Source: Fidelibacterota bacterium
GTDB taxonomy: Bacteria > Fidelibacterota > Marinisomatia > Marinisomatales > S15-B10
DNA length: 16,671 bases
Direction: 5' to 3'
Assembly: GCA_046861655.1 (NCBI GenBank)
Contig: JBHIAI010000031.1
Span: 1-16,671 of the forward strand
Position 1 is the first letter of the stretch. Each line of letters starts with the position of its first letter. Made by a program: the position numbers and the translations under genes. The notes under the pieces were generated by a model. That model was not told where the DNA came from, ran no database searches, and worked only from the letters and a program-made list of their open reading frames with translations. Shown here one piece after another: positions 2,871 through 16,671 of the stretch.

Positions 2871-3908
2871 TCAGGCCACCTCCTGGGCTTTTTCCATATC
2901 CTTTGTGTATTTTCCAAGGGTGGCCGTTCCGTTGCATCTCGCCCGGTGATAGAACGCCTTTTGGGCATGGGAAGCATTGGCGGGATCGCCCTTCCAGGCC
3001 CTTAAGGCCGGCTGTTGAAGGGCCCTCCCGTAGGAGAAGCTGAGCCTCCAGGGTGTGGACAACCCTTCCATGGCATTCATGGCATTGAGGTGCAGGGTGG
3101 CCTGTATATCGCTCTGTCCTCCCGACAGGAAGCAGATTCCCGGTACGGCCGCCGGCACGCACCGTAAGAAACAGGAGACCGTCGCTTCAGCTACCTCAGA
3201 GACGGAAGCCTGCACAGGACAATCGTATCCCGATAGCACCATGTTGGGCTTTAAGATCATCCCTTCGAGGAATACCCGGTTCTCCCGGAGGGCCCAGAAC
3301 ACAGACCTCAGCGTTTTTTCCGTCACTTCGAGGCTTCTCTCGAGGGTGTGGTCTCCGCTCATCAGGACTTCAGGTTCCACGATGGGAACCAGACCCGCTT
3401 CCTGACACAGGGCGGCGTAGCGGGCCAGGGCGTGGGCATTGGCATCGACGCAGGCCCGGGTGGGAATGTCCTCACCGATGGTAATGACGGCTCTCCACTT
3501 GGCAAACATCGCCCCCAGGTCCCGGTATTCGGCCAACCGGTCCCGGAGTCCGTCCAGGCCTTCTGTCACCTTTTCCCCTTCAAACCCGGCCAGGGGTCTG
3601 GCGCCCTTGTCCACTTTGATCCCCGGAAGGATACCCTTGTTGGAAAGGTACCGGGGAAACGGGGTATCCTCTTTCAGAGTAGACTGGCGCAGGGTCTCGT
3701 CAAACATGATGACACCGCTGATGAACTCTTCCATCCCTTCGGTGGTAAACAGCATGGCGCGGTAGAACCGGCGGTTTTCTTCCGTGGAGGGGACGTCGAT
3801 CTGATCGAACCGTTTCTTGATGGTGGGAGAACTTTCATCGGCAGCCAGAATACCCCTTCCCGGGGTCACCATTCGCCGGGCCACATCCACCAGTTGATTC
3901 CTGTTCAT
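2871..3908 (-). CDS. fba: Fructose-bisphosphate aldolase class I
   Basis: GILAADES, GIKVDKG, EGLDGL, FAKWR, ARYAALCQ, PIVEPE, LKPNMV (Schiff-base Lys), FLSGGQS, SFSYGRALQ. GGAGG-like SD upstream (cctcc 3916-3920 on + strand). Confidence 0.96.
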   Translation of the reverse strand: MNRNQLVDVARRMVTPGRGILAADESSPTIKKRFDQIDVPSTEENRRFYRAMLFTTEGMEEFISGVIMFDETLRQSTLKEDTPFPRYLSNKGILPGIKVDKGARPLAGFEGEKVTEGLDGLRDRLAEYRDLGAMFAKWRAVITIGEDIPTRACVDANAHALARYAALCQEAGLVPIVEPEVLMSGDHTLERSLEVTEKTLRSVFWALRENRVFLEGMILKPNMVLSGYDCPVQASVSEVAEATVSCFLRCVPAAVPGICFLSGGQSDIQATLHLNAMNAMEGLSTPWRLSFSYGRALQQPALRAWKGDPANASHAQKAFYHRARCNGTATLGKYTKDMEKAQEVA

Positions 3909-3934
3909 GATCGTTCCTCCTGTTGCACGGATTC

Positions 3935-5149
3935 CTACACCGGATTCTGACCTATTTCCGTCAGCATGTCCCTGAACCAGGATTGCCCGGTATCGAAGGG
4001 TTTGCCCCCCTTGATCCGGGAGAAATCGATAAGGCCCAGGACCTGATCTCTTTCGTCATCGAGTCCCACCACACCGCTTCTTCCCTCAAGGGCAACCTGG
4101 GCGGCCATGTCCGCGGACCGGACAATCAGGTCCAGATCCCGTTCATTGGGGGCGGCAGACCGGGCAAAATAGCCGCTTTTCTGAACCAGAACCTTTTCCG
4201 CCTTAAGCTCTCCGGCGAATCGTTCGGCGAACCACTGACCCGGATTCAGGGTATCCAGCTTCACGTGCCCGAAGGGGTCCCGCTCGACCTCCTCCCCGGC
4301 ACCCTCCATTTCGGCGATGATGGTGTCGATTCCGGCTCCCTCGCCCAAGAAAATATTCACCCCGTCCTTGGCGTCCATCCGTTCCATGAGTCTTTCCGTT
4401 TCCCTGCCCATGTCTATGGGGAGTTCAGGCACGTAGACGGCATCCACATCCCACCGTTCCCGTGCCAGAAGAATCTCGGGGAGGAAGGTCTTCTTCTCAA
4501 GGCGCTCCCGGTACCGGTGAGCCGTTGCCGCCGTGAGCCACCCGCAGTGCCTCCCCATCACCTCGTGGATGATGAGCTGCCGCGTGCTGGTGGTGTTCTC
4601 GTTGGCCACATTCTCAAAAAAGACGGCTCCCTGTTCCGCCGCCGTCCAGGCTCCCAGAGTCTGGGTGATGGGGATCACGTCGTTGTCCACGGTCTTGGGG
4701 AGACCCACCACGGTCAGGGAATGGCCTTGGGAATCCACATAGTCCAGCAGTTTTCCGGCCATGGTGTTCGTGTCGTCTCCCCCGATCGTGTGAAGAACGG
4801 TTACGCCGTCTTCTAGCAGCTGCCCGGCGGCCACCTCCACCGGATTCTGCCCCTGCTTGACAAGGCCTCTCCGAACACAATCCTCCTGGTTGGTGAGTTT
4901 CACCCGGCTGTTGCCGATGGGACTCCCCCCAAACTTCAACAGAGAATCTGCCTGGTCCCGAACGGTCCGGGAAAACGAAATCCGCGATCCCTGTAAGAGT
5001 CCCCGGTACCCGTGGAGATACCCGATCATTTCTGTGTCCGGGGCCAATTCCTCGTATCTCCGGATAAGGGCGCCGATGGAGGCGGAAAGACACGGGGCCA
5101 GTCCTCCGGCGGTGAGAAAAGCGATTTTCGAGGGGGTGTTGCCGGCCAT
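3935..5149 (-). CDS. pfp: Pyrophosphate--fructose-6-phosphate 1-phosphotransferase (PPi-dependent phosphofructokinase)
   Basis: LTAGGLAP, GGSPIGNSR, TIGGDDT (Asp typical of PPi use), LPKTVDND (Lys typical of PPi use), EVMGR, QKSGYFARS; ~404 aa. Confidence 0.93.
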   Translation of the reverse strand: MAGNTPSKIAFLTAGGLAPCLSASIGALIRRYEELAPDTEMIGYLHGYRGLLQGSRISFSRTVRDQADSLLKFGGSPIGNSRVKLTNQEDCVRRGLVKQGQNPVEVAAGQLLEDGVTVLHTIGGDDTNTMAGKLLDYVDSQGHSLTVVGLPKTVDNDVIPITQTLGAWTAAEQGAVFFENVANENTTSTRQLIIHEVMGRHCGWLTAATAHRYRERLEKKTFLPEILLARERWDVDAVYVPELPIDMGRETERLMERMDAKDGVNIFLGEGAGIDTIIAEMEGAGEEVERDPFGHVKLDTLNPGQWFAERFAGELKAEKVLVQKSGYFARSAAPNERDLDLIVRSADMAAQVALEGRSGVVGLDDERDQVLGLIDFSRIKGGKPFDTGQSWFRDMLTEIGQNPV

Positions 5150-5161
5150 GAATACGTGTCG

Positions 5162-5190
5162 AATTTAGACGTCTGCCGCCACACTGTAAA
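5162..5190 (-). promoter_or_regulatory. Putative sigma70-type promoter for pfp-fba
   Basis: On the minus strand: TTTACA (5190-5185), 17-nt spacer, TAAATT (5167-5162), ending 12 nt before the pfp ATG. Confidence 0.45.
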
Positions 5191-5299
5191 GATGTTAGGC
5201 GTTTGGACAGAAGGCATTGAAAAATGGTTCCCTCCGCCGTAAGTTGACAGGGGCGGGGGTATAACGCAACACGCACTCCATGAGGCAGGAGCCATCAAC

Positions 5300-6544
5300 A
5301 TGACGGATGTTAAGGTAAACAATTTCAAGGCCTGCTGTGATCAGTTCGACAGGGCAGCGGAGCATCTCAACCTCAAAGAAAATGTCGGTCACTTCCTGAA
5401 GATGCCGGACCGGGAGCTTTCGGTGGAGGTGCCCCTCGTCCGCGACGACGGGAATCTGGTGATTTACCAGGCGTACCGAATTCAACACAACAACTCCCGG
5501 GGTCCGTTCAAGGGAGGAATCCGGTACCATCAAGATGTAGACCTGGATGAGGTGCGGTCCCTGGCGGCCCTCATGACCTGGAAGACCGCCCTGGTGGACA
5601 TACCCTACGGAGGGGGCAAGGGGGGTATTGCCGTGGACCCAAAGACCTTGACCAAACGGGAACTGGAGAGGCTTTCCAGAGCGTTCCTCACCCGGATCAG
5701 TCCGGTCATCGGGGTGAACGTGGATATCCCCGCGCCTGATGTCAATACCAATGCCCAAATCATGGCCTGGTTCATGGATGAATACAGCCAGAAGAATGGG
5801 TACACTCCCGCCATAGTCACCGGGAAACCCATCGACCTTGGAGGTTCCCTCGGCAGGGAAGCGGCCACAGGGCGGGGCGTCTTCATAACTGTGAGGGAGA
5901 CGGCGAAGGAATTTGGGGTGGACCTGAGTGACTCCACGGTGGCCATTCAGGGGTTTGGGAACGTGGGTTCCTTCGCGGCCGAAGTCCTCCACCAGGCGGG
6001 ATCCAGGGTGGTAGCTGTCAGTGACGTCTCCGGCGGTCTGTATGATCCAGACGGTCTCGACACGCCGGCCCTGGTGGAGCACGCCCGCCGCTCGGGATCC
6101 ATCCAGGGCTTCTCCCAGGGCAAAGCTATTTCCAACGAGACTTTGCTGGCCCTGGAATGCGATTTCCTGATCCCCGCCGCCCTGGGAGGCGTTATTCACC
6201 GGTTGAACGCGGACACGCTGGGGTGCAAATTCGTGGTGGAGGCAGCGAACGGTCCCACCACGCCGCCGGCAGACGAGATTCTTTGGTCCAAAAACATTCC
6301 TGTCATCCCCGATATACTCGCCAACGCCGGAGGGGTTACGGTATCCTACTTCGAGTGGGTGCAGAACCTCCAGCAATTCCAGTGGGATGAGGAGACGGTC
6401 AACACCAAACTGGAAGAGAGGATGATGTCCGCTTTCCAGGAGGTGTTCAAGCTCGCAAAAGAGAAGAAAGTTTCCTTCCGCACGGCGGCCTTCATGGTGG
6501 CCATCGACAGGGTGGCCAGATCGGCAGCCCTCAGGGGATACTAG
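5300..6544 (+). CDS. gdhA: Glu/Leu/Phe/Val dehydrogenase, most likely NAD(P)-dependent glutamate dehydrogenase
   Basis: RGPFKGGIRYH, LMTWKTA, PYGGGKGG, DIPAPDVNT, TGKP, GREAATGRG, QGFGNVG Rossmann motif, EAANGP, PDILANAGGVTVSYFEWVQN. AGGAG SD at 5287-5291. Confidence 0.93.
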   Translation: MTDVKVNNFKACCDQFDRAAEHLNLKENVGHFLKMPDRELSVEVPLVRDDGNLVIYQAYRIQHNNSRGPFKGGIRYHQDVDLDEVRSLAALMTWKTALVDIPYGGGKGGIAVDPKTLTKRELERLSRAFLTRISPVIGVNVDIPAPDVNTNAQIMAWFMDEYSQKNGYTPAIVTGKPIDLGGSLGREAATGRGVFITVRETAKEFGVDLSDSTVAIQGFGNVGSFAAEVLHQAGSRVVAVSDVSGGLYDPDGLDTPALVEHARRSGSIQGFSQGKAISNETLLALECDFLIPAALGGVIHRLNADTLGCKFVVEAANGPTTPPADEILWSKNIPVIPDILANAGGVTVSYFEWVQNLQQFQWDEETVNTKLEERMMSAFQEVFKLAKEKKVSFRTAAFMVAIDRVARSAALRGY

Positions 6545-7047: not shown

Positions 7048-7320
7048 GTGATCAAGCTAAACTGCTGGGAATTCATGAGGTGCGGCCGTGAAACAGGGGG
7101 TTCCAGGGAAAAGGATCTGGGGCGCTGTCCGGCGTTTACCTTCACCACGTTTCACGGTACCAACGGCGGTTTTCGTTCGGGCCGGTACTGCTGGTTTGTG
7201 GCCGGAACGTTCCAGGATGGAGAGCCTGCGTGCAACTCAGCCGAAACAGTGGAGGACTGTTCCCAGTGCAGCTTTTTCGAGCGGGTCCGGAAAGAGGAAG
7301 GATCCGGGTTCGTCCTCTAG
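7048..7320 (+). CDS. Small Cys-rich two-CW domain protein (90 aa), function unknown
   Basis: KLNCWEFMRCGRETGG...LGRCPA...GTNGG...GRYCWFVAGT...CSQCSFF...EEG pattern with two CW dipeptides; GTG start at 7048 with GGAGG at 7033-7037. Confidence 0.75.
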   Translation: MIKLNCWEFMRCGRETGGSREKDLGRCPAFTFTTFHGTNGGFRSGRYCWFVAGTFQDGEPACNSAETVEDCSQCSFFERVRKEEGSGFVL

Positions 7321-7330
7321 GAAGACCGCT

Positions 7331-7585
7331 GTGGCATACTGGCGCATCCCTCTGGACACACACGATCTTGAGTTACCCACGGGTGAGGTCCATATCCTTG
7401 TGGAACGGTGCAAGGGGTGCGGATTCTGCGAGGAGTATTGTCCCCGGCATATCCTGAAGATGTCATCCCGGTTCAACGGGAAGGGCTACCACTATCCCGA
7501 TGTGGTTACACAGGACGAATGCGTTAACTGCCATCTTTGTGAGATCATCTGTCCTGAGTTCGCCATTTTCACCACGGAACGATGA
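7331..7585 (+). CDS. korD: 2x[4Fe-4S] ferredoxin-like delta subunit of 2-oxoacid:ferredoxin oxidoreductase
   Basis: CKGCGFCEEYCP and CVNCHLCEIICPEFAI with the NGKGYHYP linker typical of KorD/OorD. GTG 7331 preferred over the 7088 start of the ORF track, which overlaps the two-CW gene. ATGA overlap with the alpha subunit. Confidence 0.88.
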   Translation: MAYWRIPLDTHDLELPTGEVHILVERCKGCGFCEEYCPRHILKMSSRFNGKGYHYPDVVTQDECVNCHLCEIICPEFAIFTTER

Positions 7586-8742
7586 AGGCTGATCCGGTTA
7601 ACGTAGCAACAGGAACGTATTTTATGGATGGCGATCACGCCTGCGCCGAGGGGGCCATCGCCGCCGGATGCCGCTTTTTTGCGGGGTACCCCATCACACC
7701 ATCCACCGAGGCTGCCGAACGCATCGCCGGGCGTTTTCCCAAAGTGGGCGGCATGTTCATTCAGATGGAAGACGAACTGGCCTCCATGGCGGCGGTGGCC
7801 GGCGCGGCCTGGGCCGGAACCAAAGCCATGACGGTCACATCCGGACCTGGATTCTCTCTGATGATGGAGAACATCGGTCTGGCCGCCATGCTGGAAACCC
7901 CCTGCGTGGTTGTGAACGTCCAGCGGGGCGGACCCTCCACGGGCCTTCCCACTCTCACGGGTCAAGCGGATATGATGCAGGCCCGCTGGGGCTCCCACGG
8001 TGACTACGAGATCATCGCCATTTCTCCCAATTCACCCCAGGAGTGCTTCGACCTTACCGTAACGGCGTTCAATCTGAGTGAAATCTGGAGGGTACCGGTC
8101 CTTTTCATGATGGATGAGTGCGTGGGACACATGACCGAAAAGGTGGTCATTCCTGACCCGGGAGAGATTGAGATCGTTTCCAGAAAATACTACCGGGGCA
8201 AGAAAAGACCGTACAAACCCTTCAAGTTCAACGGCCAGGCAAGACTGGCCCCCATGTCGAAGGCCGGAAACGGTCACTATTTCCACATCACCGGGCTGAC
8301 CCACGACGAACGGGGATACCCTGTGATTAACGCCGAGGCCCAGGACAAGAACGTTCGCCACCTGGTAAACAAAATCCGGGATAACGAGGAGAAGATTCAG
8401 ATCATCGAGGAGGACCGCATCAACGGCGCAGAGGTGGTGGTTGTCTCTTTCGGCATCTCATCGAGGGTCGCCCGTAGGGGAGTGGACATAGCCCGGAAAC
8501 AGGGGATCCGGGTGGGTACCCTCCGATTGATAACGGTCTGGCCCTTTCCTGAGAAAAGAATCCGTCAGCTGGCTGAGCGGGTGAGGGCTTTTGTGGTCCC
8601 CGAAATCAATATGGGCCAGATTGTGTTTGAAGTGGAGCGGGTGGCGGCGGGGAATGCCAGGAGCATCCTGGTGCCCCATGCCGGAGGGTGGGTACACGAT
8701 CCCCAGGATATCGCCCGGGCAATCCAGGAGGCTGCCCGATGA
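7582..8742 (+). CDS. korA: 2-oxoacid:ferredoxin oxidoreductase alpha subunit (probably 2-oxoglutarate)
   Basis: FAGYPITPSTE, QMEDELAS, TSGPGFSLMME, NVQRGGPSTGLPT, QARWGSHGD, TGLTHDERGYP, WPFP, PEINMGQ. Confidence 0.93.
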   Translation: MKADPVNVATGTYFMDGDHACAEGAIAAGCRFFAGYPITPSTEAAERIAGRFPKVGGMFIQMEDELASMAAVAGAAWAGTKAMTVTSGPGFSLMMENIGLAAMLETPCVVVNVQRGGPSTGLPTLTGQADMMQARWGSHGDYEIIAISPNSPQECFDLTVTAFNLSEIWRVPVLFMMDECVGHMTEKVVIPDPGEIEIVSRKYYRGKKRPYKPFKFNGQARLAPMSKAGNGHYFHITGLTHDERGYPVINAEAQDKNVRHLVNKIRDNEEKIQIIEEDRINGAEVVVVSFGISSRVARRGVDIARKQGIRVGTLRLITVWPFPEKRIRQLAERVRAFVVPEINMGQIVFEVERVAAGNARSILVPHAGGWVHDPQDIARAIQEAAR

Positions 8743-9653
8743 CACCCGGTGAAAGGGACCTTACGGATACTTTGCCCATTCCCGAACCTCCGGAACGTCT
8801 CTCCCATCCCATAGAAGAGTTTCTCAGGACTGAAAGACTTCCCCATGTCTGGTGTTCCGGATGCGGTATCGGCACCGTCCTGACCGCCTTTATTTCCGGA
8901 CTTCAGAAGTCGGGACTCGATGCCAGGAAGGTATCCGTTGTCTCCGGTATCGGATGCTCCGGTCGGGCTGCCGGGTATCTCCGGCTGGATTCTTTCCACA
9001 CCACCCACGGACGGGCCATACCGTTCGCCACCGGCCTGGCCCTGGGAAACCCGGAACTCAAGGTGGTCATCATTTCAGGGGACGGCGATCTCGTAGCCAT
9101 CGGAGGCAATCACTTCATTCATGCCGCCCGCCGGAACATCGATATGACCGTGATTTGCATCAATAACTACAACTACGCCATGACGGGCGGTCAAGTTGGC
9201 CCCACCACTCCCCTTCAGGCCAGGGCGTCCACGGCACCGTACGGCAGTTATGAATACCCCTTCAATCTCGCGTACCTGGCGGAATCAAGCGGAGCGGTTT
9301 ACGTTGCCCGGTGGACGGCCCTGCATGTTCGACGGTTGACCAAGGCCATTGCCGAGGCCCTCGGTAAGCCCGGGTTCTCATTCATCGAGGTCATCTGCCC
9401 CTGCCCCACACTGTACGATCGTCTGAACCGGCTGGGTGACGGCATCGATTCCCTGAGGTTCTATCACGATAACGCCCATATCCAGCACGGTGCCAACACC
9501 CGGGATGTGGACATCGGATTTCAGCAAAGAATCGTCGTCGGAAAATTCGTAGACAAGGAAAAGCCAACCTTCCTGGATCAATACCACAGGTTCATGAAGG
9601 AGAAACTGGGAGATCAATTCACCCCCTACCGGAAACCCGACCATGGACATTAG
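8739..9653 (+). CDS. korB: 2-oxoacid:ferredoxin oxidoreductase beta subunit (TPP-binding)
   Basis: WCSGCG, SGIGCSGR, HTTHGRA, TPP motif GDGD...IGGNH...NNYNYAMTGGQ, CPT. Start at ATG 8739 overlapping the korA TGA. Confidence 0.93.
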   Translation: MTPGERDLTDTLPIPEPPERLSHPIEEFLRTERLPHVWCSGCGIGTVLTAFISGLQKSGLDARKVSVVSGIGCSGRAAGYLRLDSFHTTHGRAIPFATGLALGNPELKVVIISGDGDLVAIGGNHFIHAARRNIDMTVICINNYNYAMTGGQVGPTTPLQARASTAPYGSYEYPFNLAYLAESSGAVYVARWTALHVRRLTKAIAEALGKPGFSFIEVICPCPTLYDRLNRLGDGIDSLRFYHDNAHIQHGANTRDVDIGFQQRIVVGKFVDKEKPTFLDQYHRFMKEKLGDQFTPYRKPDHGH

Positions 9654-10227
9654 AATTTCAGGGTTCGGGGGACAGGGAATCATCAAGGCCGGATTCCTGG
9701 TAGGGAAGGCCGCTTCCCTGTTTGATGGAAAACACGCCACGCTGAATCAGAGTTTCGGACCCGAGGCCCGGGGCGGGGCGTGTTCGGCCCAGGTCATCAT
9801 CTCAGACTCACCCGTGTTCTATCCCTACATCATGGCTACTGAGATCCTGGTCGCCATGTCCCAGGAGGCCTACGACAGATTCGCCGGCGATCTCCACGGG
9901 AAAGGGATCCTTCTTTATGACGCCGATCTCGTGACCCCCGGGAATACGCCGAAAGGGGTGAAATCATTTTCCATCCCCTCCACGCGGATCGCCGAAGAGA
10001 TGGGAAACAGGATTTTCGCCAACGTGGTCATGGTCGGATTTTTTGCCGCAATCACACAAATGGTGACGCCGGAGGCCGTCAGGAAGGCCCTCCCTGGATC
10101 GGTACCGAGCCGTTTTGTGGACAAGAATATCGAAGCGTTCGATCGAGGTTTCACCTACGGAAAGGATTTGTTGAAGGAGAACTCAAGGGCATCCCTCGCA
10201 GAGCAGGGTGTTAGTCCTGTCCTGTAA
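9643..10227 (+). CDS. korC: 2-oxoacid:ferredoxin oxidoreductase gamma subunit
   Basis: IRISGFGGQGII, QSFGPEARGGAC, LVAMSQEAY, ANVVMVG, NIEAFDRG. Confidence 0.92.
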   Translation: MDIRISGFGGQGIIKAGFLVGKAASLFDGKHATLNQSFGPEARGGACSAQVIISDSPVFYPYIMATEILVAMSQEAYDRFAGDLHGKGILLYDADLVTPGNTPKGVKSFSIPSTRIAEEMGNRIFANVVMVGFFAAITQMVTPEAVRKALPGSVPSRFVDKNIEAFDRGFTYGKDLLKENSRASLAEQGVSPVL

Positions 10228-10334
10228 TATGTGACTCCCTACGAGGTAGCCATATTGCATCTCTCATCCTGCTCCTGCGCAGGGATGCTTCACCGCTGGG
10301 ATCCCACCCTGGCAAACGGTGGGCCAGGGGGAGA

Positions 10335-12176
10335 ATGACAGAAATCACCCGAGAAGACCTGGACACCATCAGAGAAGAATCCAGGGAATCCCTCCGCCTT
10401 GAGGAACGGGGAGCCCGGGCGAAGATCACTGTTCATATGGGCACTTGTGGTCTTGCGGCAGGCGCACAGACTGTCATGGATGCCCTGCTAGAGATCAGGC
10501 AAGAGGAAAACGGGACCGACGTCATCCTCTCCAGTTCTGGCTGCGCCGGTCTCTGCAGTCGCGAACCCATGCTGACGGTGGAATTGTTGGGGAAGGATCC
10601 TGTCAAATATGCGGATCTCACCGAAAACAAGGCCCGAAAGATCTTTGAAGAACACGTCCAGGGCGGTAGGCCCGTCATGGAATATGCCCTCCCCCCGGAT
10701 TCCCGGATGGACTTTTTCAAACACCAGATGCTTGTGGCTCTACGAAACCGCGGGCTCACGGATCCAGAAAGCGTCGATGAATACATCGGCCGGGGTGGGT
10801 ATGAGGGACTGGCCAAGGCTCTCCTGGAGATGACTCCCGAGGAGATCATTGAGGAGGTAAAGACATCCAGGATCAGGGGCCGGGGTGGGGCCGGGTTTCC
10901 CACCGGGGTGAAGTGGGAGTTCTGTCGCGGGGCACCGGGTGACAGGAAATACCTGGTCTGCAACGCGGATGAGGGGGACCCGGGAGCGTTCATGGACCGG
11001 AGTATTCTCGAGTCTGACCCCCATTCGGTTCTTGAAGGGATGACCATTGCCGCCCGGGCCATCGGAGCTTCCCAAGGAATCGTGTACGTGAGGGATGAAT
11101 ACCCTTTGGCCATGAAGAGGCTGGAGATTGCCATCGATCAGTCCGAATCCTACGGCCTGCTGGGAGAGGACATCCTTGGAAGCGGTTGGGGCTTTCGGGT
11201 CCGTCTCGTAAGGGGCGGGGGAGCCTTCGTTTGCGGGGAGGAAACTGCCCTGATCGCTTCCCTCCAGGGCCTTCCGGGAAGACCCCGGCCCCGACCCCCG
11301 TTTCCCGCCCAGAAGGGACTGTGGGAGAGTCCCACCGTCATCAACAACGTGGAAACATTGGCGAATATTCCCGTCATCATCCAACGCGGCGGTGCCTGGT
11401 ATGCTGGGATCGGCACCGACACCTCCAGGGGAACCAAAGTGTTCTCCCTGGTGGGGAAAGTGAACAACACCGGTTTGGTGGAAGTCCCCATGGGGACCCC
11501 CTTAAGAACAATCATCTTTGATATCGGCGGGGGCGTTCCCGACGGAAAGAAATTCAAGGCTGTCCAGACCGGAGGACCCTCCGGTGGGTGCATCCCGGAG
11601 GCCCTTATGGACCTTCCCGTTGACTATGAACAACTCACCAAAGCCGGGTCCATCATGGGCTCGGGAGGACTCATCGTCATGGACGAGAGCTCCTGTATGG
11701 TGGATGTGGCCCGCTACTTCCTGGGCTTCCTCATGGAGGAATCGTGCGGAAAATGCACCCCCTGCCGGGAAGGTATCCTGAGGATGCACGAAATCCTAAC
11801 GGACATTACCCGGGGAAAGGGGACCCTCAACCAGCTGGACCTGCTCCAAGAGCTGGCCCTGGTTGTGAAGGATGCCTCCCTCTGCGGACTGGGAGCCACC
11901 GCCCCCAATCCCGTCCTGACAACGCTGAAGTACTTTCGTCCTGAATACGAAGCTCACATCACGGACCTGACCTGTCCCGCTGGCGTCTGCCCGGACCTGA
12001 TCACCTACCGAATCGATCCTGACCTGTGTACCGGCTGCCTGGTGTGCAAGAGACTGTGCCCGTCCGAAGCCATCACCGGGGAAAGACAGGTGCCCCATTC
12101 AATAGATGCTGAACTCTGCATAAAGTGCGGTGCCTGCGAGGAAAGTTGCCGATTCCATGCCGTCATCAGGGAATGA
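10335..12176 (+). CDS. NADH/FMN-binding HydB/NuoF-like (BfuB-type) subunit with N-terminal thioredoxin-like FeS domain and C-terminal 2x[4Fe-4S]
   Basis: HMGTCG..SGCAGLC N-domain; RGRGGAGFPTGVKW; CNADEGDPGAFMDR; GAFVCGEETAL; GGPSGGC; ESCGKCTPCREG; SLCGLG; EAHI..CPAGVC; CTGCLVCKRLCP / CIKCGACEESC. Confidence 0.93.
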   Translation: MTEITREDLDTIREESRESLRLEERGARAKITVHMGTCGLAAGAQTVMDALLEIRQEENGTDVILSSSGCAGLCSREPMLTVELLGKDPVKYADLTENKARKIFEEHVQGGRPVMEYALPPDSRMDFFKHQMLVALRNRGLTDPESVDEYIGRGGYEGLAKALLEMTPEEIIEEVKTSRIRGRGGAGFPTGVKWEFCRGAPGDRKYLVCNADEGDPGAFMDRSILESDPHSVLEGMTIAARAIGASQGIVYVRDEYPLAMKRLEIAIDQSESYGLLGEDILGSGWGFRVRLVRGGGAFVCGEETALIASLQGLPGRPRPRPPFPAQKGLWESPTVINNVETLANIPVIIQRGGAWYAGIGTDTSRGTKVFSLVGKVNNTGLVEVPMGTPLRTIIFDIGGGVPDGKKFKAVQTGGPSGGCIPEALMDLPVDYEQLTKAGSIMGSGGLIVMDESSCMVDVARYFLGFLMEESCGKCTPCREGILRMHEILTDITRGKGTLNQLDLLQELALVVKDASLCGLGATAPNPVLTTLKYFRPEYEAHITDLTCPAGVCPDLITYRIDPDLCTGCLVCKRLCPSEAITGERQVPHSIDAELCIKCGACEESCRFHAVIRE

Positions 12177-12189
12177 CGGGGGACTGTCG

Positions 12190-12642
12190 ATGAACCTTGA
12201 CCGTATTGACAGAATCATGAAACAGCATGATTACGAACCATCCAGTGTCATCGCCATGCTCCAGGACATCCAGAAGGACCTGCGGTATCTTCCAAAGGAT
12301 GAGCTGCGGGTTCTTGCGGACAGAATAGGGATACCGGCCAGCCGGGTCTATTCGCTGGCCACCTTTTACAGATCTTTCAGTCTCAAGCCCAGGGGGAGGC
12401 ATCTGGTTCGGGTTTGTATGGGGACTGCCTGCCACGTCAGGGGAGGCGCTTTGATCATGGGCAAGATACTTCGGGACCTGAAAACGGAACCGGGTGAAAT
12501 GACCGTGGACCGGAAGTTCACCGTGGAACCCGTCCGGTGCGTGGGATGCTGCGGTCTGGCTCCCGTCATCGTAATAGACGAAGATTTCTTCGGCAAGATG
12601 ACTCAGCAGAAGACCCCTCGAACACTGCGAAAGTACGAGTAG
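12190..12642 (+). CDS. [2Fe-2S] HydC/NuoE-like (BfuC-type) subunit
   Basis: LQDIQ..RYLP, ATFYRSF, VCMGTACHVRG, RCVGCCGLAPV. ATG 12190 after GGGGGA chosen over 12130, which overlaps the upstream gene. Confidence 0.92.
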   Translation: MNLDRIDRIMKQHDYEPSSVIAMLQDIQKDLRYLPKDELRVLADRIGIPASRVYSLATFYRSFSLKPRGRHLVRVCMGTACHVRGGALIMGKILRDLKTEPGEMTVDRKFTVEPVRCVGCCGLAPVIVIDEDFFGKMTQQKTPRTLRKYE

Positions 12643-12675
12643 TATGGTGTATGAGTAGCAGGTTTCCATCTCATA

Positions 12676-12720
12676 CGTCATTGCGAGGATCCCCACAAAG
12701 CGGGGAGACGTGGCAATCTC
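12676..12720. repeat. CGTC-tagged REP-like palindromic element
   Basis: CGTCATTGCGAG-GATCCCCACAAAGCGGGGA-GACGTGGCAATCTC follows the GTCATTGCGAG...GACG..GCAATCTC layout of CGTC-type palindromic repeats, with an internal TCCCC/GGGGA hairpin. Confidence 0.6.
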
Positions 12721-12752
12721 ATAGTGCTACGGAGCACTACGAAAGGGTAAAG

Positions 12753-13412
12753 ATGGTAGGGATCACCATAGACAACCGCAAGGTAGAGGCCAGGGAGGGA
12801 ACGACGCTCCTGGATGTGTTCCGGAACACCGGGATAAAGGTCCCCACTCTTTGCGCCCACGAGGCCGTTTCACCCTATGCCGCCTGCCGGATGTGCCTGG
12901 TGGAAGTCACTGTGGGCAAACGGACCATGCTGGTGGCCTCATGCAGTCACCCGGTGTCCGAGGGAACGGTGGTCAACACCTCCTCCGAACGGGTCATGAA
13001 CGCCCGGAGAATGGTGGCTGAACTCCTTCTGGCCCGCTCTCCCAACGCCCCCGCAATCCAGAAGATTGCCGGTGAACTGGGCATTACCCGCACCCGCTTC
13101 AAAAAGAGGGATGAAACCTGCATTCTGTGCGGATTGTGTGTCCGGGGCTGTGAGGAAATCGCCGGTCTTGGCGCCATCTCGTTTGCCGGCAGGGGGGTCC
13201 ATACCGAGATGGTGAGTCCTTTCAAGGTTCCATCGGAGGTCTGTGCCGGGTGTACCACCTGTGTCTATCTGTGTCCCACGGACGCCATCCGCCTGGGTGA
13301 CATTCGCGTCATGGAAACGCCTCATCATTTCCATGAAGATATGGATGGGGCCAGGTGTGGACTGTGTGCAGAATATGGAATGGTTCCCACGTTTGGGGAA
13401 GTCCACATCTGA
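12753..13412 (+). CDS. Short FeS subunit similar to the HydA/NuoG N-terminus ([2Fe-2S] + 2x[4Fe-4S]), no catalytic domain
   Basis: PTLC..AACRMCLVEV..VASC ([2Fe-2S]); CILCGLCVRGC and CAGCTTCVYLCPTDA; only 219 aa. ATG 12753 preceded by AAAGGG; the 12537 extension of the ORF track crosses the preceding gene and the repeat. Confidence 0.88.
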   Translation: MVGITIDNRKVEAREGTTLLDVFRNTGIKVPTLCAHEAVSPYAACRMCLVEVTVGKRTMLVASCSHPVSEGTVVNTSSERVMNARRMVAELLLARSPNAPAIQKIAGELGITRTRFKKRDETCILCGLCVRGCEEIAGLGAISFAGRGVHTEMVSPFKVPSEVCAGCTTCVYLCPTDAIRLGDIRVMETPHHFHEDMDGARCGLCAEYGMVPTFGEVHI

Positions 13413-13415
13413 ATC

Positions 13416-15479
13416 ATGACATCCGGCGCAAGGATCGGGGTCTTTATGTGCGATTGCGGAGGGGAAATCCCTGCTGTCCTGGATTCCGACGAATTGCTCC
13501 AGGAGATCACCCGTCTTGAAGGGGTGACCCATGTGGAAAGACTCCCCTACAGCTGTAGTCCCCACGGGGAAGAAACCATCATAGCCCGGATCAGGAACAT
13601 GTCTCTCAGCAGGGTGGTTGTGCTGGGCTGCTCACCCAGAATCATGGAAAAAAGGTTTCAGCGGGTCTGTTCTGATGCGGGATTGAATCCCTTTCTCCTG
13701 GAGATGGTGAACATCCGGGACCAGTGCGTGAGAATCCACGGGTCCGATCCGGGCACGGCCGGAGAAAAGGCCCGGGATCTGGTGAGCCTGGGCCTGGCCA
13801 GAGCCCGTCGTCTCAGTCCCGTGGCACCGGTTGAGGCCGAAATGCACCCGCGGGTGATGGTCGTGGGCACGGGTGTCGCAGGGTGCACCGCAGCCCTCTC
13901 CCTGGCCCGGCAGGAGATCAAGGTCACCCTGGTGGAACCCGGGAAAAAGTCCCGGGGCCCAAAGGACATGATGGACGATATCCGAACATCAAGAAACATA
14001 GATCTGCGCATGGGATCTGAGGTTCTTGCCGTCTCGGGCAGCTACGGAAACCTGAATATCGAAATCGGCTCAGATGACAGCGCTGAAACCATAACATGCG
14101 GAGCCGCGCTCCTGGCCACCGGCGCCGACCACTGGAAACCGAAGGGACTTTTCGGCTACGGTGAGGATTCACGGGTTGTGACTCAATCGGAGCTGAAGGA
14201 GAGGCTCGACACCCATCCCTCTCTCCAGGGGGTGGATAACGTGGTCATGATCCAGTGTGTGGGTGCCCGGACCGATGAAAGACCGTACTGCGGAAGAGTC
14301 TGCTGCCTGTGGGCCGCGGACAACGCCATCCGTCTGAAAAAGGATAAACGGTCTAGAGAGATAACCATCCTGTACCGTGACATTCCCCAGAGGCCCGGCC
14401 CCGGTATGGGAACCCTGGATGAAGCCCGGGAGCTTGGTGTCAGATTCCTCCGTTTCAGCCCCGGGGGACCCCCAGAGGTCCGACCGTCCGGCGTCACGGG
14501 AAATACCACGGATGGACAGACCTATGAGCTCCCCTTTGACCTCCTTGTCCTGTCCACTCCTCCTGTACCCTGGGACTCCTCCCGGGAACTGGCGGCCAGA
14601 TTCCGCATCCCGGTGGATGAATTCGGATTCATCCCGGATACGATGGCCAGCCTGAAGGCCCATCAGTTTGTTGAACCCTGTATTCATCCCGTGGGCAACG
14701 CTCATTGGCCCTGTACCCCATCCGAAGCCATGGTCCAGGCCTACGGTCGATCGGCCCAAATCGCCTCCCTTCTCCAGAGGGGCAAGGTCACCTCCCACCG
14801 TCTCACGGCCACGGTAAAACCCGATGTGTGCAGGGCGTGCGGCACGTGTGTAGAATGGTGTCCGTTCGATGTGCCGGTGATTCAGACCATGAACGGAGGC
14901 CGCCCGGTTTCTTTCATCGACCCCTTTCTTTGCCGGGGGTGTGGATCTTGCGTGGCCCACTGTCCCAATGGGGCCGCAACCATCACCAATCTTGAGGACG
15001 AAGCTTACTTCCACATGATAGAGTCGGTCATGTCTCGCGGCAGTGACAACGGGGTGAGAGCCCTGGCCTTCTTATGCGACTGGAGCGGGAACGCGGTGGC
15101 GGACCTTGCCGGTGTCCGGAGAAAATCTTTGCCCGGGGGTGTGGTTCCCATCCGGTTCCCCTGTGCCGCCAGGATTTCCACAGGTCTCCTGCTCCGGGCG
15201 TTTTCCTGCGGGGCCGATGGGGTACTGGTGGGCATGTGCGGAAAGAGAGAATGTCACTACATGGGCGGCAACACAAATTTCACAAAAAGCGTGAGCGATA
15301 CCGCCCGTATCCTGGCTCTTCTTGGGATTGAAGACAGAAGATTCCAGATGAGGGACATCAGCCCGGTGGATGCGGACGGTTTCTCTAAGATCCTTGGAGA
15401 TTTCGTGACTGAATTGGAAAAACTCAAAGGTTCCGCCCTCAGGTTGCCCTATGCGAAAGCAGAACGGACCGGACCCTGA
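13416..15479 (+). CDS. HdrA-like FAD/FeS protein fused to a C-terminal MvhD-like [2Fe-2S] domain
   Basis: HdrA N-domain GVFMCDCG, YSCS, GCSPR, NIRDQC; VGTGVAG; LLATG; IQCVGAR..YCGRVCC; C-terminal CRACGTCVEWCP / CRGCGSCVAHCP; from about 15051 MvhD-like FLCDWS..DLAG..PCAARI..GADGVLVGMC..ECHY..GN. Confidence 0.88.
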   Translation: MTSGARIGVFMCDCGGEIPAVLDSDELLQEITRLEGVTHVERLPYSCSPHGEETIIARIRNMSLSRVVVLGCSPRIMEKRFQRVCSDAGLNPFLLEMVNIRDQCVRIHGSDPGTAGEKARDLVSLGLARARRLSPVAPVEAEMHPRVMVVGTGVAGCTAALSLARQEIKVTLVEPGKKSRGPKDMMDDIRTSRNIDLRMGSEVLAVSGSYGNLNIEIGSDDSAETITCGAALLATGADHWKPKGLFGYGEDSRVVTQSELKERLDTHPSLQGVDNVVMIQCVGARTDERPYCGRVCCLWAADNAIRLKKDKRSREITILYRDIPQRPGPGMGTLDEARELGVRFLRFSPGGPPEVRPSGVTGNTTDGQTYELPFDLLVLSTPPVPWDSSRELAARFRIPVDEFGFIPDTMASLKAHQFVEPCIHPVGNAHWPCTPSEAMVQAYGRSAQIASLLQRGKVTSHRLTATVKPDVCRACGTCVEWCPFDVPVIQTMNGGRPVSFIDPFLCRGCGSCVAHCPNGAATITNLEDEAYFHMIESVMSRGSDNGVRALAFLCDWSGNAVADLAGVRRKSLPGGVVPIRFPCAARISTGLLLRAFSCGADGVLVGMCGKRECHYMGGNTNFTKSVSDTARILALLGIEDRRFQMRDISPVDADGFSKILGDFVTELEKLKGSALRLPYAKAERTGP

Positions 15480-16671
15480 TCTAGAGGAAAGAATAAGGCG
15501 GACCAACGCTCTGGCCTGTCTGGACTGTGGCAAATGCACCAGCGTCTGCCCCGTTTCCCTTTTCGGCCGGAATTCCCATTCTTCCGGTCAGTACTCTCCC
15601 CGGGTTATCCTGACCAGGGCCGTACGCCGGGACTACAACTCCCTGTTTGAGGATTACAGACTGTGGAGCTGTCTCACCTGTAAGAAATGCGACCAGGTCT
15701 GTCCGTCGGACATACGGTACTTGGACCTCATGTACACACTCAGATCGAGTGCCAGAGGTTCCGGGCTGAAAAGTGGCGGGTGCACCCATTCGGGAGCCCT
15801 GGATGCCCTGAGTACCCTGATGACCGCAGAGAATCTGAAGCAGAACCGCCTGGAATGGGTCACGGACGACCTTCAGGTCTCCTCCGAAGGGGAAGTTCTC
15901 TACTTTGTGGGGTGTGCTCCGTATTTTGACGCCTTTTTCACCGACCTTGACCTTTCCACCCTGGAGGCGGCACGGAGCAGCATCAAGATCCTCAACGCCC
16001 TGGACATCTCCCCTGTTCTACTGCCCGATGAACGGTGCTGCGGGCACGACCTTTACTGGAATGGGGATGTGGAACATTTCAAGATCCTGGCAGATCACAA
16101 CGTTTCCCGGATCAAGGGGAATGGAGTAAGGACCGTTCTTTTCTCCTGTGCCGAATGCCTCAGTGCGTTCAAGAACCTCTATCCGGCCCAGGGGTACGAT
16201 CTGGATGTAGAGTTCAAGCATATGAGCCAGTTCCTGGCAGAAAAGGTCGAGTCCGGGGAAATCAAGATGAAGGATGCTCGACAGGTGTACACCTATCAAG
16301 ATCCCTGCCGCCTGGGACGGCACCTGGGTATTTACGATGAACCCCGGAGGGTGCTGTCACACGGATCCTCTGAGAATGGCGGCCCATCCTCTGCCTTCCA
16401 CGAGATGAGGCATACCCGGAAGCAGTCCCTTTGCTGTGGGGTCAGTGCCTGGATGAACTGCGACGTCAACGCCAAGTCCATTCAGATGGAACGGCTCCGG
16501 CAGGCAAACGACACGGGGGCGGACGTGTTGGCTGTCGCCTGCCCCAAATGTCAGATACATCTTATCTGCACCCTGAAGGATAAGACGCTTCAGGAGGGAT
16601 ACGAAATCAAGATCCAGGACATCGCATCGGTGGCCCTGGAACGGATGAAACAACGCGAAAGCCCAAACAGG
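15451..16671 (+). CDS. HdrD-like (HdrC+HdrB type) FeS oxidoreductase with 2x[4Fe-4S] and two CCG domains, 3'-truncated by window edge
   Basis: Translated by hand in frame 1 from ATG 15451 (MRKQNGPDPDLEERIRRTNALACLDCGKCTSVCP...WSCLTCKKCDQVCP...YFVGCAPY...DERCCGH...SCAEC...YQDPCRLGRH...LCCG...ACPKCQIH...) with no stop before 16671. Confidence 0.9.
   Translation, partial: MRKQNGPDPDLEERIRRTNALACLDCGKCTSVCPVSLFGRNSHSSGQYSPRVILTRAVRRDYNSLFEDYRLWSCLTCKKCDQVCPSDIRYLDLMYTLRSSARGSGLKSGGCTHSGALDALSTLMTAENLKQNRLEWVTDDLQVSSEGEVLYFVGCAPYFDAFFTDLDLSTLEAARSSIKILNALDISPVLLPDERCCGHDLYWNGDVEHFKILADHNVSRIKGNGVRTVLFSCAECLSAFKNLYPAQGYDLDVEFKHMSQFLAEKVESGEIKMKDARQVYTYQDPCRLGRHLGIYDEPRRVLSHGSSENGGPSSAFHEMRHTRKQSLCCGVSAWMNCDVNAKSIQMERLRQANDTGADVLAVACPKCQIHLICTLKDKTLQEGYEIKIQDIASVALERMKQRESPNR

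Follow-up and report, generated by a model that had tools for sequence, protein, structure and literature searches.

A conserved Kor-Hdr gene cluster of Fidelibacterota with exchangeable input arms and its likeness to class II benzoyl-CoA reductase

What a 2-oxoacid:ferredoxin oxidoreductase (OFOR) does in one gene cluster with Bfu- and Hdr-type electron-transfer subunits is the question raised by contig JBHIAI010000031.1 of a Fidelibacterota (Marinisomatota/Neomarinimicrobiota) bacterium (assembly GCA_046861655.1). The window, meaning the whole stretch of 16,671 nt analysed here, is an entire contig (C36) of this genome (G000; 2.06 Mb, 93% complete). Its cluster, which encodes the four-subunit OFOR Kor, a Bfu trio, an HdrA-MvhD fusion (HdrA') and an HdrD-like protein, is a real, conserved system combining known parts, and its Bfu-fed Kor-Hdr form is a new variant. 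The cluster would work like the cascade of class II benzoyl-CoA reductase (BCRII), and is not itself BCRII, a hydrogenase or an Hdr-Flx complex. An initial annotation, made from the letters of the window, had already drawn the parallel to the electron-transfer part of BCRII, and the comparisons below support it.

The cluster and its continuation

Ten + strand genes, with intergenic spacing of -29 to +110 nt, run from position 7048 to the window end, and the cluster continues with a selenocysteine (Sec)-containing HdrA on contig C51 of the same genome. In order, the genes are:

7048..7320, + strand: two-CW-domain protein, 90 aa, conserved first gene of the cluster (NF045718, above cut-off)
7331..7585, + strand: KorD, delta subunit, 2x[4Fe-4S], 84 aa, GTG start placed by comparison with relatives (Fer4 domains; best NCBIfam match OGOR_delta, below cut-off)
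7582..8742, + strand: KorA, OFOR alpha subunit (NF006412, above cut-off; PDB relatives 1yd7, 8ys5 and 6n2n)
8739..9653, + strand: KorB, thiamine pyrophosphate (TPP)-binding beta subunit with GIGCSGR motif
9643..10227, + strand: KorC, gamma subunit (PF01558)
10335..12176, + strand: BfuB (HydB/BamH-like), with FMN/NADH core, B2-site ligands and C-terminal 2x[4Fe-4S]
12190..12642, + strand: BfuC (HydC/BamG-like), [2Fe-2S] protein (PF01257)
12753..13412, + strand: short type 2 BfuA (BamI-like), one [2Fe-2S] and two [4Fe-4S] clusters, without the A3 site or a catalytic domain
13416..15479, + strand: HdrA'-MvhD, putative adaptor, with N-domain, eroded FAD domain, C-terminal ferredoxin domain and MvhD without its second Cys
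15451..16671, + strand: HdrD-like protein (HdrC+B type; BamD-like), with 2x[4Fe-4S] and two intact CCG domains
G000:C51:13-2445: Sec-HdrA-MvhD, the second HdrA of the cluster
G000:C51:2623-3204: GAF protein, next after Sec-HdrA and followed by citrate synthase on the opposite strand

Gene calls, spacing and family matches confirm the ten co-directional, tightly packed genes of the initial annotation; nine are redox subunits as it had said, and the remaining one is the small two-CW-domain protein, whose gene lies directly 5' of korD in most relatives. The annotation had also expected the cluster to run past the window and had suggested looking downstream for a second HdrA, which is what C51 holds. 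The HdrD frame is cut by the window end a few codons short of its stop. The end of C36 and the start of C51 have four identical letters, and a join there would complete HdrD at 410 residues, with its stop overlapping the HdrA start; in G001, of the same genus, hdrD and Sec-hdrA lie on one contig 25 nt apart. The stretch is present in hydrothermal-vent metagenome runs, all from one study, and in four of these runs contigs align on 12500-16671, some of them extending past the window end. Among the datasets listed as containing the stretch there is no RNA set. Scans for promoters and terminators gave counts at chance level, and the gap between korC and bfuB held no site of either kind.

A conserved core and three input arms

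An HdrD ortholog (at least 59% identity) occurs in 12 of 41 near relatives, G000 included; these 12 and eight genomes from a phylum-wide sample make up 20 carriers, and 15 of the 29 non-carriers served as controls. Kor and HdrD lie on one contig and in the same order in 17 of the 20 carriers, the other three being fragmented by contig ends. A KorA ortholog (at least 75% identity) is present in all 20 carriers of the Hdr core and in none of the 15 controls, a pattern rather than a statistic, as kin are not independent. Separate, more distant OFORs were matched in 20/20 carriers and 14/15 controls, and Kor is thus an extra, Hdr-linked enzyme. The conservation of kor-Hdr synteny, which the initial annotation had proposed to check, is borne out together with strict co-occurrence. 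The arrangement is not due to chance.

The constant order is kor, an input arm ending in ferredoxin-MvhD, hdrD and Sec-hdrA-mvhD. What varies is the arm. Five of the 20 carriers (G000, G001, G018, G033 and G181) have Bfu plus HdrA'; in 13 the arm is a fusion of a GltD-type domain with ferredoxin-MvhD, and the remaining two have a tandem Sec-HdrA with MvhD and an extra hdrCB. Most GltD domains have an RR motif, which we take to be typical of NADPH binding, and the spacing of korC within 6 nt of the arm gene in several GltD genomes suggests one operon. Between korC and hdrD, Bfu and HdrA' are either both present or both absent, behaving as one block. In a tree of 26 Sec-HdrA proteins the Bfu label changes at least twice on well-supported branches, and one supported clade from a single genus holds all three arms (G181, Bfu; G162, GltD; G219, tandem). 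A later check upheld the Bfu label of G001. The Bfu arm, which the initial annotation had made the defining part, is therefore not conserved, 15 of 20 carriers having another arm. The Bfu/HdrA' form is uncommon, full-length HdrA' orthologs being found in 4 of 251 phylum genomes sampled.

A scan across all species gave 13 loci, four of them genomes already counted. The nine others, from Bacteroidota, Gemmatimonadota, Aminicenantes, Cloacimonadota, Stahlbacteria and others, all have the Hdr core; six have adjacent kor genes, two are cut by contig ends and one (L046) has korD alone. Bfu and GltD occur together in two of the nine. A metagenome scan with the short BfuA found 51 loci, distant relatives only (at most 46% identity), and the best nine include three Por-Bfu and two Hdr-Bfu-Mvh clusters and none that joins Kor, Bfu and Hdr.

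Several loci seen along the way are variants in their own right. G031 has two kor-GltD clusters (L104 on C171 and L024 on C191), one of them in the aldolase/phosphofructokinase context where G000 has the Bfu arm. G181 (L105, L083) has a second korDAB copy of equal score, possibly an assembly duplicate. Another Bfu-Hdr combination, BfuBC with tandem or split HdrA, MvhD and an MvhAG hydrogenase, occurs at L089, L091, L119 and L121. In other Marinisomatota, loci L094:6124-17782, L095:6973-17003 and L100 encode succinyl-CoA synthetase, fumarase, HdrA-MvhD, HdrC and HdrB along with two genes that resemble thiol:fumarate reductase subunits by eye and by BLAST to Sdh/Frd; these clusters are possibly an Hdr-coupled fumarate reduction branch.

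Two unlike HdrA proteins

Four features can be used to recognise a bifurcating HdrA: residues E356 and K409 of the methanogen enzyme, proposed as marks in the accessible part of PMC12054007, a CxxC/U motif and an inserted ferredoxin domain. Sec-HdrA has all of them (E363 and K417 at the two positions, CxxU as C196/U199, and the insert) and matches NF040770 (HdrA2) with 1182 bits against a cut-off of 1100. HdrA' has K261 and D302 at the two positions and lacks both motif and insert. The bifurcating copy is thus on C51 and not in the window, where the initial annotation had counted HdrA-MvhD as part of an electron-bifurcating system.

In a set of 12, made up of HdrA' and the 11 closest homologs of full or nearly full length, the Glu is kept in six, the Lys in one and both in none, and Ser replaces the second Cys of MvhD in 12/12. 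In G000, part of the FAD-binding loop is lost relative to orthologs. All Fe-S ligands are kept, and the frame is intact in 12 orthologs with 43-63% identity to HdrA'. The first 540 residues align, at 32%, with the C-terminal half of the tandem HdrA from related clusters. In BCRII, as the accessible text of a preprint describes it, BamE is a fused dimer of one bifurcating and one non-bifurcating FAD unit, and its C-terminal ferredoxin clusters accept electrons from BamI (bioRxiv 10.64898/2026.04.10.717634). Taken together, the residues, the tandem-half match and the BamE structure point to HdrA' as a non-bifurcating adaptor that corresponds to the second half of BamE and is joined to an MvhD of the BamF kind.

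Sec-HdrA has an in-frame TGA at codon 199 (motif DCSI-U). At this position 44 distinct HdrA rows have TGA in 32, a Cys codon in 12, and TAA or TAG in none. A hairpin of 7 bp and loop GGUC lies 21 nt past the TGA in 32/32 TGA rows and is absent from all 12 Cys rows; this hairpin, of the selenocysteine insertion sequence type, has one compensatory pair. G000 has tRNA-Sec and SelD, and selA, present in 11 of 12 carriers, was not found in this 93% complete genome. Sec at the same position is known from Methanococcus HdrA (PMC13518236, in the part available). A broken or split second hdrA was considered and rejected, the interruption being a Sec codon.

The Bfu arm

BfuB has FMN/NADH, SLBB, 4Fe-4S and C-terminal ferredoxin domains in Pfam and is accompanied by BfuC. 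Its best PDB matches are NfnB, StnB and HydB (627-757 bits), with Fdh beta and NuoF chains at 417 or below. In an alignment to 7t2r_B, the B2 ligands C454, T492, H541, C547 and C552 correspond to C438, C/T476, H525, C531 and C536, and A218 and M220 to A202 and M204 of the A. mobile enzyme; F182 of that enzyme has no exact counterpart mapped, the nearest BfuB Phe aligning with F196. BfuA (219 aa) has four plus eight Cys and sites A1, A2 and A4 only, and a domain search matched no A3, H-cluster or molybdopterin domain, which agrees with the initial description of a HydB/HydC/short-HydA-like trio. BfuB, BfuC and BfuA have the sequence features of Bfu-family type 2, whose BfuA is shared by Bam-Bfu and Por-Bfu in the scheme given in the accessible part of PMC9304861. 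The conserved cofactor ligands make a confurcating role of BfuBC plausible. The trio was also considered as a displaced part of complex I, and this was rejected, as the complex I of G000 has its own NuoEFG.

The N-terminal thioredoxin-like domain of BfuB (10335-10690) shares 61% identity with the product of a free-standing HydD-like gene (127 aa) 5' of bfuB in G181, against 31% with the N-domain that BfuB of G181 itself has (comparison loci L083:8671-9054 and L023:15985-16368). It seems that in the genus of G000 the small HydD-like gene was fused to bfuB and displaced the original N-domain.

Kor, HdrD and their possible partners

The GIGCSGR motif of KorB has an Arg, as in the 2-oxoglutarate enzyme 8ys5, and we take this residue to bear on substrate choice; a literature check on which residue sets OGOR specificity gave nothing usable. 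The nearest named models and structures for Kor are of the OGOR type, with scores below the model cut-offs, and the substrate is probably 2-oxoglutarate. A selD gene, often with a two-subunit OFOR, lies just upstream of the cluster in L024, L026, L028, L031 and L099, and in G000 the two occur together on contig C13.

The two-CCG HdrD-like protein of the initial annotation is confirmed: both CCG domains keep five Cys, ten in all, and 3 of 26 orthologs lack one. The HDP-motif His is Gln in 25 of 27 rows, C111/H113/C337/H370 are further conserved residues, and Glu/Trp/Lys occur where BamD is described with His/Trp/Tyr, positions placed by motif only. Mycobacterial EtfD is the only PDB sequence match of HdrD and its best fold match (TM 0.73), ahead of HdrB. 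In BCRII, according to the available preprint text, the HdrD-like BamD passes electrons to electron transfer flavoprotein (ETF) and not to a disulfide, its substrate site being blocked and its distal non-cubane cluster disrupted (bioRxiv 10.64898/2026.04.10.717634). The electron sinks of G000 are ETF, a FadF/EMO-like protein, complex I, fumarate reductase, NosZ, a type II DMSO-reductase-family enzyme and pieces of a heme-copper oxidase. Of the thiol carriers that the initial annotation had suggested seeking, the lipoyl carrier GcvH is present in 5/5 genomes tested; DsrC was not found in G000, and with DsrC-family genes in only 4 of 20 carriers it was rejected as a general acceptor.

The window was said at the outset to show neither a W-pterin BamB nor a hydrogenase, and the searches agree. 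PF01314 (AOR/BamB) was not found in G000, in 19 of 20 carriers or in any cluster examined, no NiFe large subunit was found in G000 or G001, and no FeFe hydrogenase in G000; NiFe hydrogenases occur elsewhere in the genome, outside the cluster, in 17 of 20 carriers. Neither C36 nor the part of C51 after the cluster holds bamBC, mvhAG or fdh, genes that would have made this an already described complex. A concealed hydrogenase, formate dehydrogenase or BamBC partner is rejected. A separate observation is a 1140-aa fusion of a molybdopterin oxidoreductase domain and a NifS-type cysteine desulfurase on G000:C168 (L115:1280-4699).

Energetics and a possible mechanism

The Kor couple lies at -500 to -520 mV. 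Potentials listed in Table 1 of PMC9304861 are -280 mV for NADH, -380 mV for NADPH and -500 mV for ferredoxin, and that given for ETF in the accessible preprint text is +16 mV (bioRxiv 10.64898/2026.04.10.717634). The computed output of Bfu confurcation is about -390 mV, which matches NADPH and explains the repeated exchange of arms. From a donor at about -390 mV, reduction of Kor and ETF would release 49-57 kJ per four electrons; a -140 mV disulfide in place of ETF lowers this to 19-27 kJ, and a -250 mV couple to about zero. A low-potential branch feeding the same ferredoxin pool would be a futile cycle for the Bfu arm, so a more negative sink would be needed. The cluster retains no low-potential enzyme other than Kor, which is therefore favoured as that output, working reductively.

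These considerations suggest a BCRII-type cascade in which a four-subunit Kor takes the place of the BamBC ring reductase. BfuBC, going by its cofactor ligands, would confurcate NADH and reduced ferredoxin to about -390 mV. By analogy with BamI, BamE and BamF, electrons would then leave BfuA, cross the ferredoxin and MvhD domains of HdrA' and reach the Sec-HdrA FAD, where they would be bifurcated. The low-potential electron may travel by way of the inserted ferredoxin domain to KorD and KorAB, where Kor would carboxylate succinyl-CoA reductively to 2-oxoglutarate; the high-potential electron would exit at HdrD, its acceptor being either ETF, which would pass it on to the quinone pool, or a disulfide. 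The first step would be replaced in most relatives by entry of NADPH (-380 mV) at the GltD-type domain. That confurcation followed by HdrA bifurcation drives Kor reductively, with a high-potential exit via HdrD to ETF or a disulfide, has in our estimate roughly even chances.

Several observations weigh against this reductive cascade. The join of C36 and C51 rests on synteny and an overlap that is weak by itself, the same four letters being common to six contig ends. The intact five-Cys sites of HdrD, its Glu/Trp/Lys and the Gln for His of most rows are unlike the BamD details that argue for ETF, and ETF is encoded outside the cluster in 30/30 carriers and non-carriers alike. At L046, korD stands with the Hdr core and korABC is not adjacent. 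No ATP-citrate lyase domain was found in 5/5 Bfu-variant genomes, in a search that had no working control, which lends no support to a full reductive tricarboxylic acid (rTCA) cycle. SucA was not found in the 35 genomes searched, nor Rnf in G000, where a route of ferredoxin reoxidation would be needed; both absences fit an oxidative role.

Such an oxidative or reversible role would have Kor oxidise glutamate-derived 2-oxoglutarate while Sec-HdrA confurcates the resulting electrons with thiol electrons from the non-cubane sites of HdrD, the mid-potential output going to NADPH through the GltD arm or to NADH and ferredoxin through the Bfu arm. Glutamate dehydrogenase lies directly upstream of the cluster, HdrD retains its ten CCG cysteines and C111/H113/C337/H370, the lipoyl carrier GcvH is present in the five genomes tested, and a couple near -250 mV would put the whole reaction within 6 kJ of equilibrium. 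However, the cluster keeps no thiol carrier, DsrC being as rare as noted above; with ETF or a -140 mV disulfide the reaction would be uphill by 19-57 kJ per four electrons; a separate two-subunit OFOR is available for oxidation; and the closest solved fold to HdrD is the ETF-linked EtfD, with HdrB behind it. We consider this role rather unlikely. The initial annotation had suggested a coupling of NAD(H), ferredoxin and a thiol/disulfide that serves 2-oxoacid oxidation; this is kept as one option, although the energetics speak for reduction except where the third couple is near -250 mV, and the solved BCRII uses ETF, not a thiol/disulfide, at its HdrD-like subunit.

It is improbable that the role of Kor is limited to supplying Bfu, under shared regulation, with reduced soluble ferredoxin, while the low-potential output goes to an enzyme or ferredoxin encoded elsewhere. 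The link between Kor and Hdr seen here is a genomic one, and KGOR is the ferredoxin-reducing system used with BCRII in the accessible preprint text (bioRxiv 10.64898/2026.04.10.717634); yet Kor persists in the 15 carriers lacking a Bfu arm and hence a ferredoxin input site of this kind, and 19 of 20 carriers have no AOR/BamB-type enzyme. Very improbable is an operon for two separate enzymes, a Por-Bfu-type Kor-BfuABC and an HdrA-MvhD/HdrD with HdrA' as a decaying or structural relic of a tandem HdrA, for although Por-Bfu clusters without Hdr exist (PMC9304861, in the part available; loci L117, L120 and L122) and the FAD-binding loop of HdrA' is partly lost in G000, its Fe-S ligands and frame are maintained in the orthologs and it comes and goes with Bfu as one block.

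The reductive cascade has a stronger, more tentative form, in which a single megadalton complex with Bfu and HdrA in series delivers electrons below the potential of ferredoxin to a bound 2-oxoglutarate synthase; we think this unlikely, though not fanciful. If true, it would be a CO2-fixing counterpart of benzoyl-CoA reductase, and only two kinds of enzyme would then be known to contain two bifurcation modules. Together with the citrate synthase encoded nearby, the complex could power a reversed TCA flux of the citrate-synthase type in a phylum regarded as heterotrophic, and the plug-in arms would show that NADPH and NADH plus ferredoxin are interchangeable as donors.

Neighbouring genes

In several genomes the neighbours of the cluster include glutamate dehydrogenase, citrate synthase, malate dehydrogenase or succinyl-CoA synthetase. 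In the window, positions 1-2000 and 2871-6544 hold thiamine pyrophosphokinase, a sodium:solute symporter, TonB, class I aldolase, phosphofructokinase and glutamate dehydrogenase; the first two are possibly a thiamine supply for the TPP enzyme. Aldolase and phosphofructokinase also lie beside the cluster in G018, in G033 and at the second G031 copy. The two-CW protein (7048-7320) and the single-GAF-domain protein (L021:2623-3204, on C51) bracket the cluster, are both kept in many Marinisomatota, and are possibly its regulators.

Comparison with known systems

Since Kor with Hdr-Flx, Por-Bfu, and Bfu with HdrA have all been published before, the term "undescribed" in the initial annotation is too strong, and Kor wired to Hdr is not new as a genomic idea. 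No publication was found that joins Kor, Bfu, HdrA' and HdrD, in a search whose coverage left out most subscription journals and the supplements of key papers. Por-Bfu was predicted in 2022 (PMC9304861); in the accessible part of that work it has, like the present cluster, four OFOR subunits beside BfuABC and a short BfuA without A3 and A5. Unlike Por-Bfu, the present cluster includes an Hdr part, and its OFOR is of the 2-oxoglutarate type and is retained when Bfu is replaced. HdrA-MvhD fusions, GltD-type NAD(P)H domains, Sec-HdrA and HdrD are shared with the archaeal HdrA2-type (type Ia), type II and type III clusters (PMC12054007) and the HdrL loci of Desulfobacterium autotrophicum (PMC2702500), for which two HdrA copies have been proposed to lower potential stepwise. 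Those clusters have F420, formate, hydrogenase or Dsr partners, and the parts of these sources available do not describe Bfu or Kor in them.

Closer in content are the rTCA clusters of tubeworm symbionts and Thioflavicoccus, in which korABCD is interspersed with flxABCD-hdrABC and tfrAB; Kor, Hdr-Flx and Tfr were proposed to form an rTCA complex and later shown to be co-transcribed (PMC6315080, PMC11636981, both in part). Kor with Hdr-Flx has also been noted for Bipolaricaulia, in the available text of bioRxiv 10.1101/2023.11.26.568696. As here, the symbiont operon combines a four-subunit Kor, dimeric KorAB being found elsewhere, with an HdrA module and NAD(P)H input, and direct electron delivery to Kor has been proposed (PMC6315080, PMC11636981). 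It differs in that the input here is Bfu plus HdrA' (or GltD) rather than Flx, the exit is HdrD rather than HdrBC, and two bifurcation modules would stand in series. None of flxABCD, hdrBC, tfrAB and aclAB was found in the cluster (C36 and C51), the domain search for ATP-citrate lyase again lacking a working control.

The closest likeness is to BCRII of Geobacter metallireducens, Bam[(BC)2DEFGHI]2, whose preprint, in its accessible part, calls two different bifurcation modules in one complex previously unreported (bioRxiv 10.64898/2026.04.10.717634). The present cluster suggests that such a cascade serves central carbon metabolism where the aromatic enzyme is absent, and bears on how microbes drive succinyl-CoA carboxylation, a step that ranks with the hardest in a reductive TCA flux. 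Simpler than BCRII and free of tungsten, it could serve as a model for the coupled reaction that was not demonstrable in vitro with that enzyme. As one genus alone holds the core with three natural arms, what each arm does can be tested directly. As far as the available text of the preprint allows a comparison, both systems have a confurcating trio of the HydBC type whose small subunit has three clusters, two HdrA units of which one bifurcates and the other does not, an MvhD adaptor, an HdrD-like high-potential exit and a selenocysteine. Unlike in BCRII, BamBC is replaced by Kor in the operon, and the HdrA units are encoded separately and have an MvhD each. The selenocysteine lies in the CxxU of HdrA here and in MvhD there, and both five-Cys sites of HdrD are intact here, whereas the distal site of BamD is disrupted.

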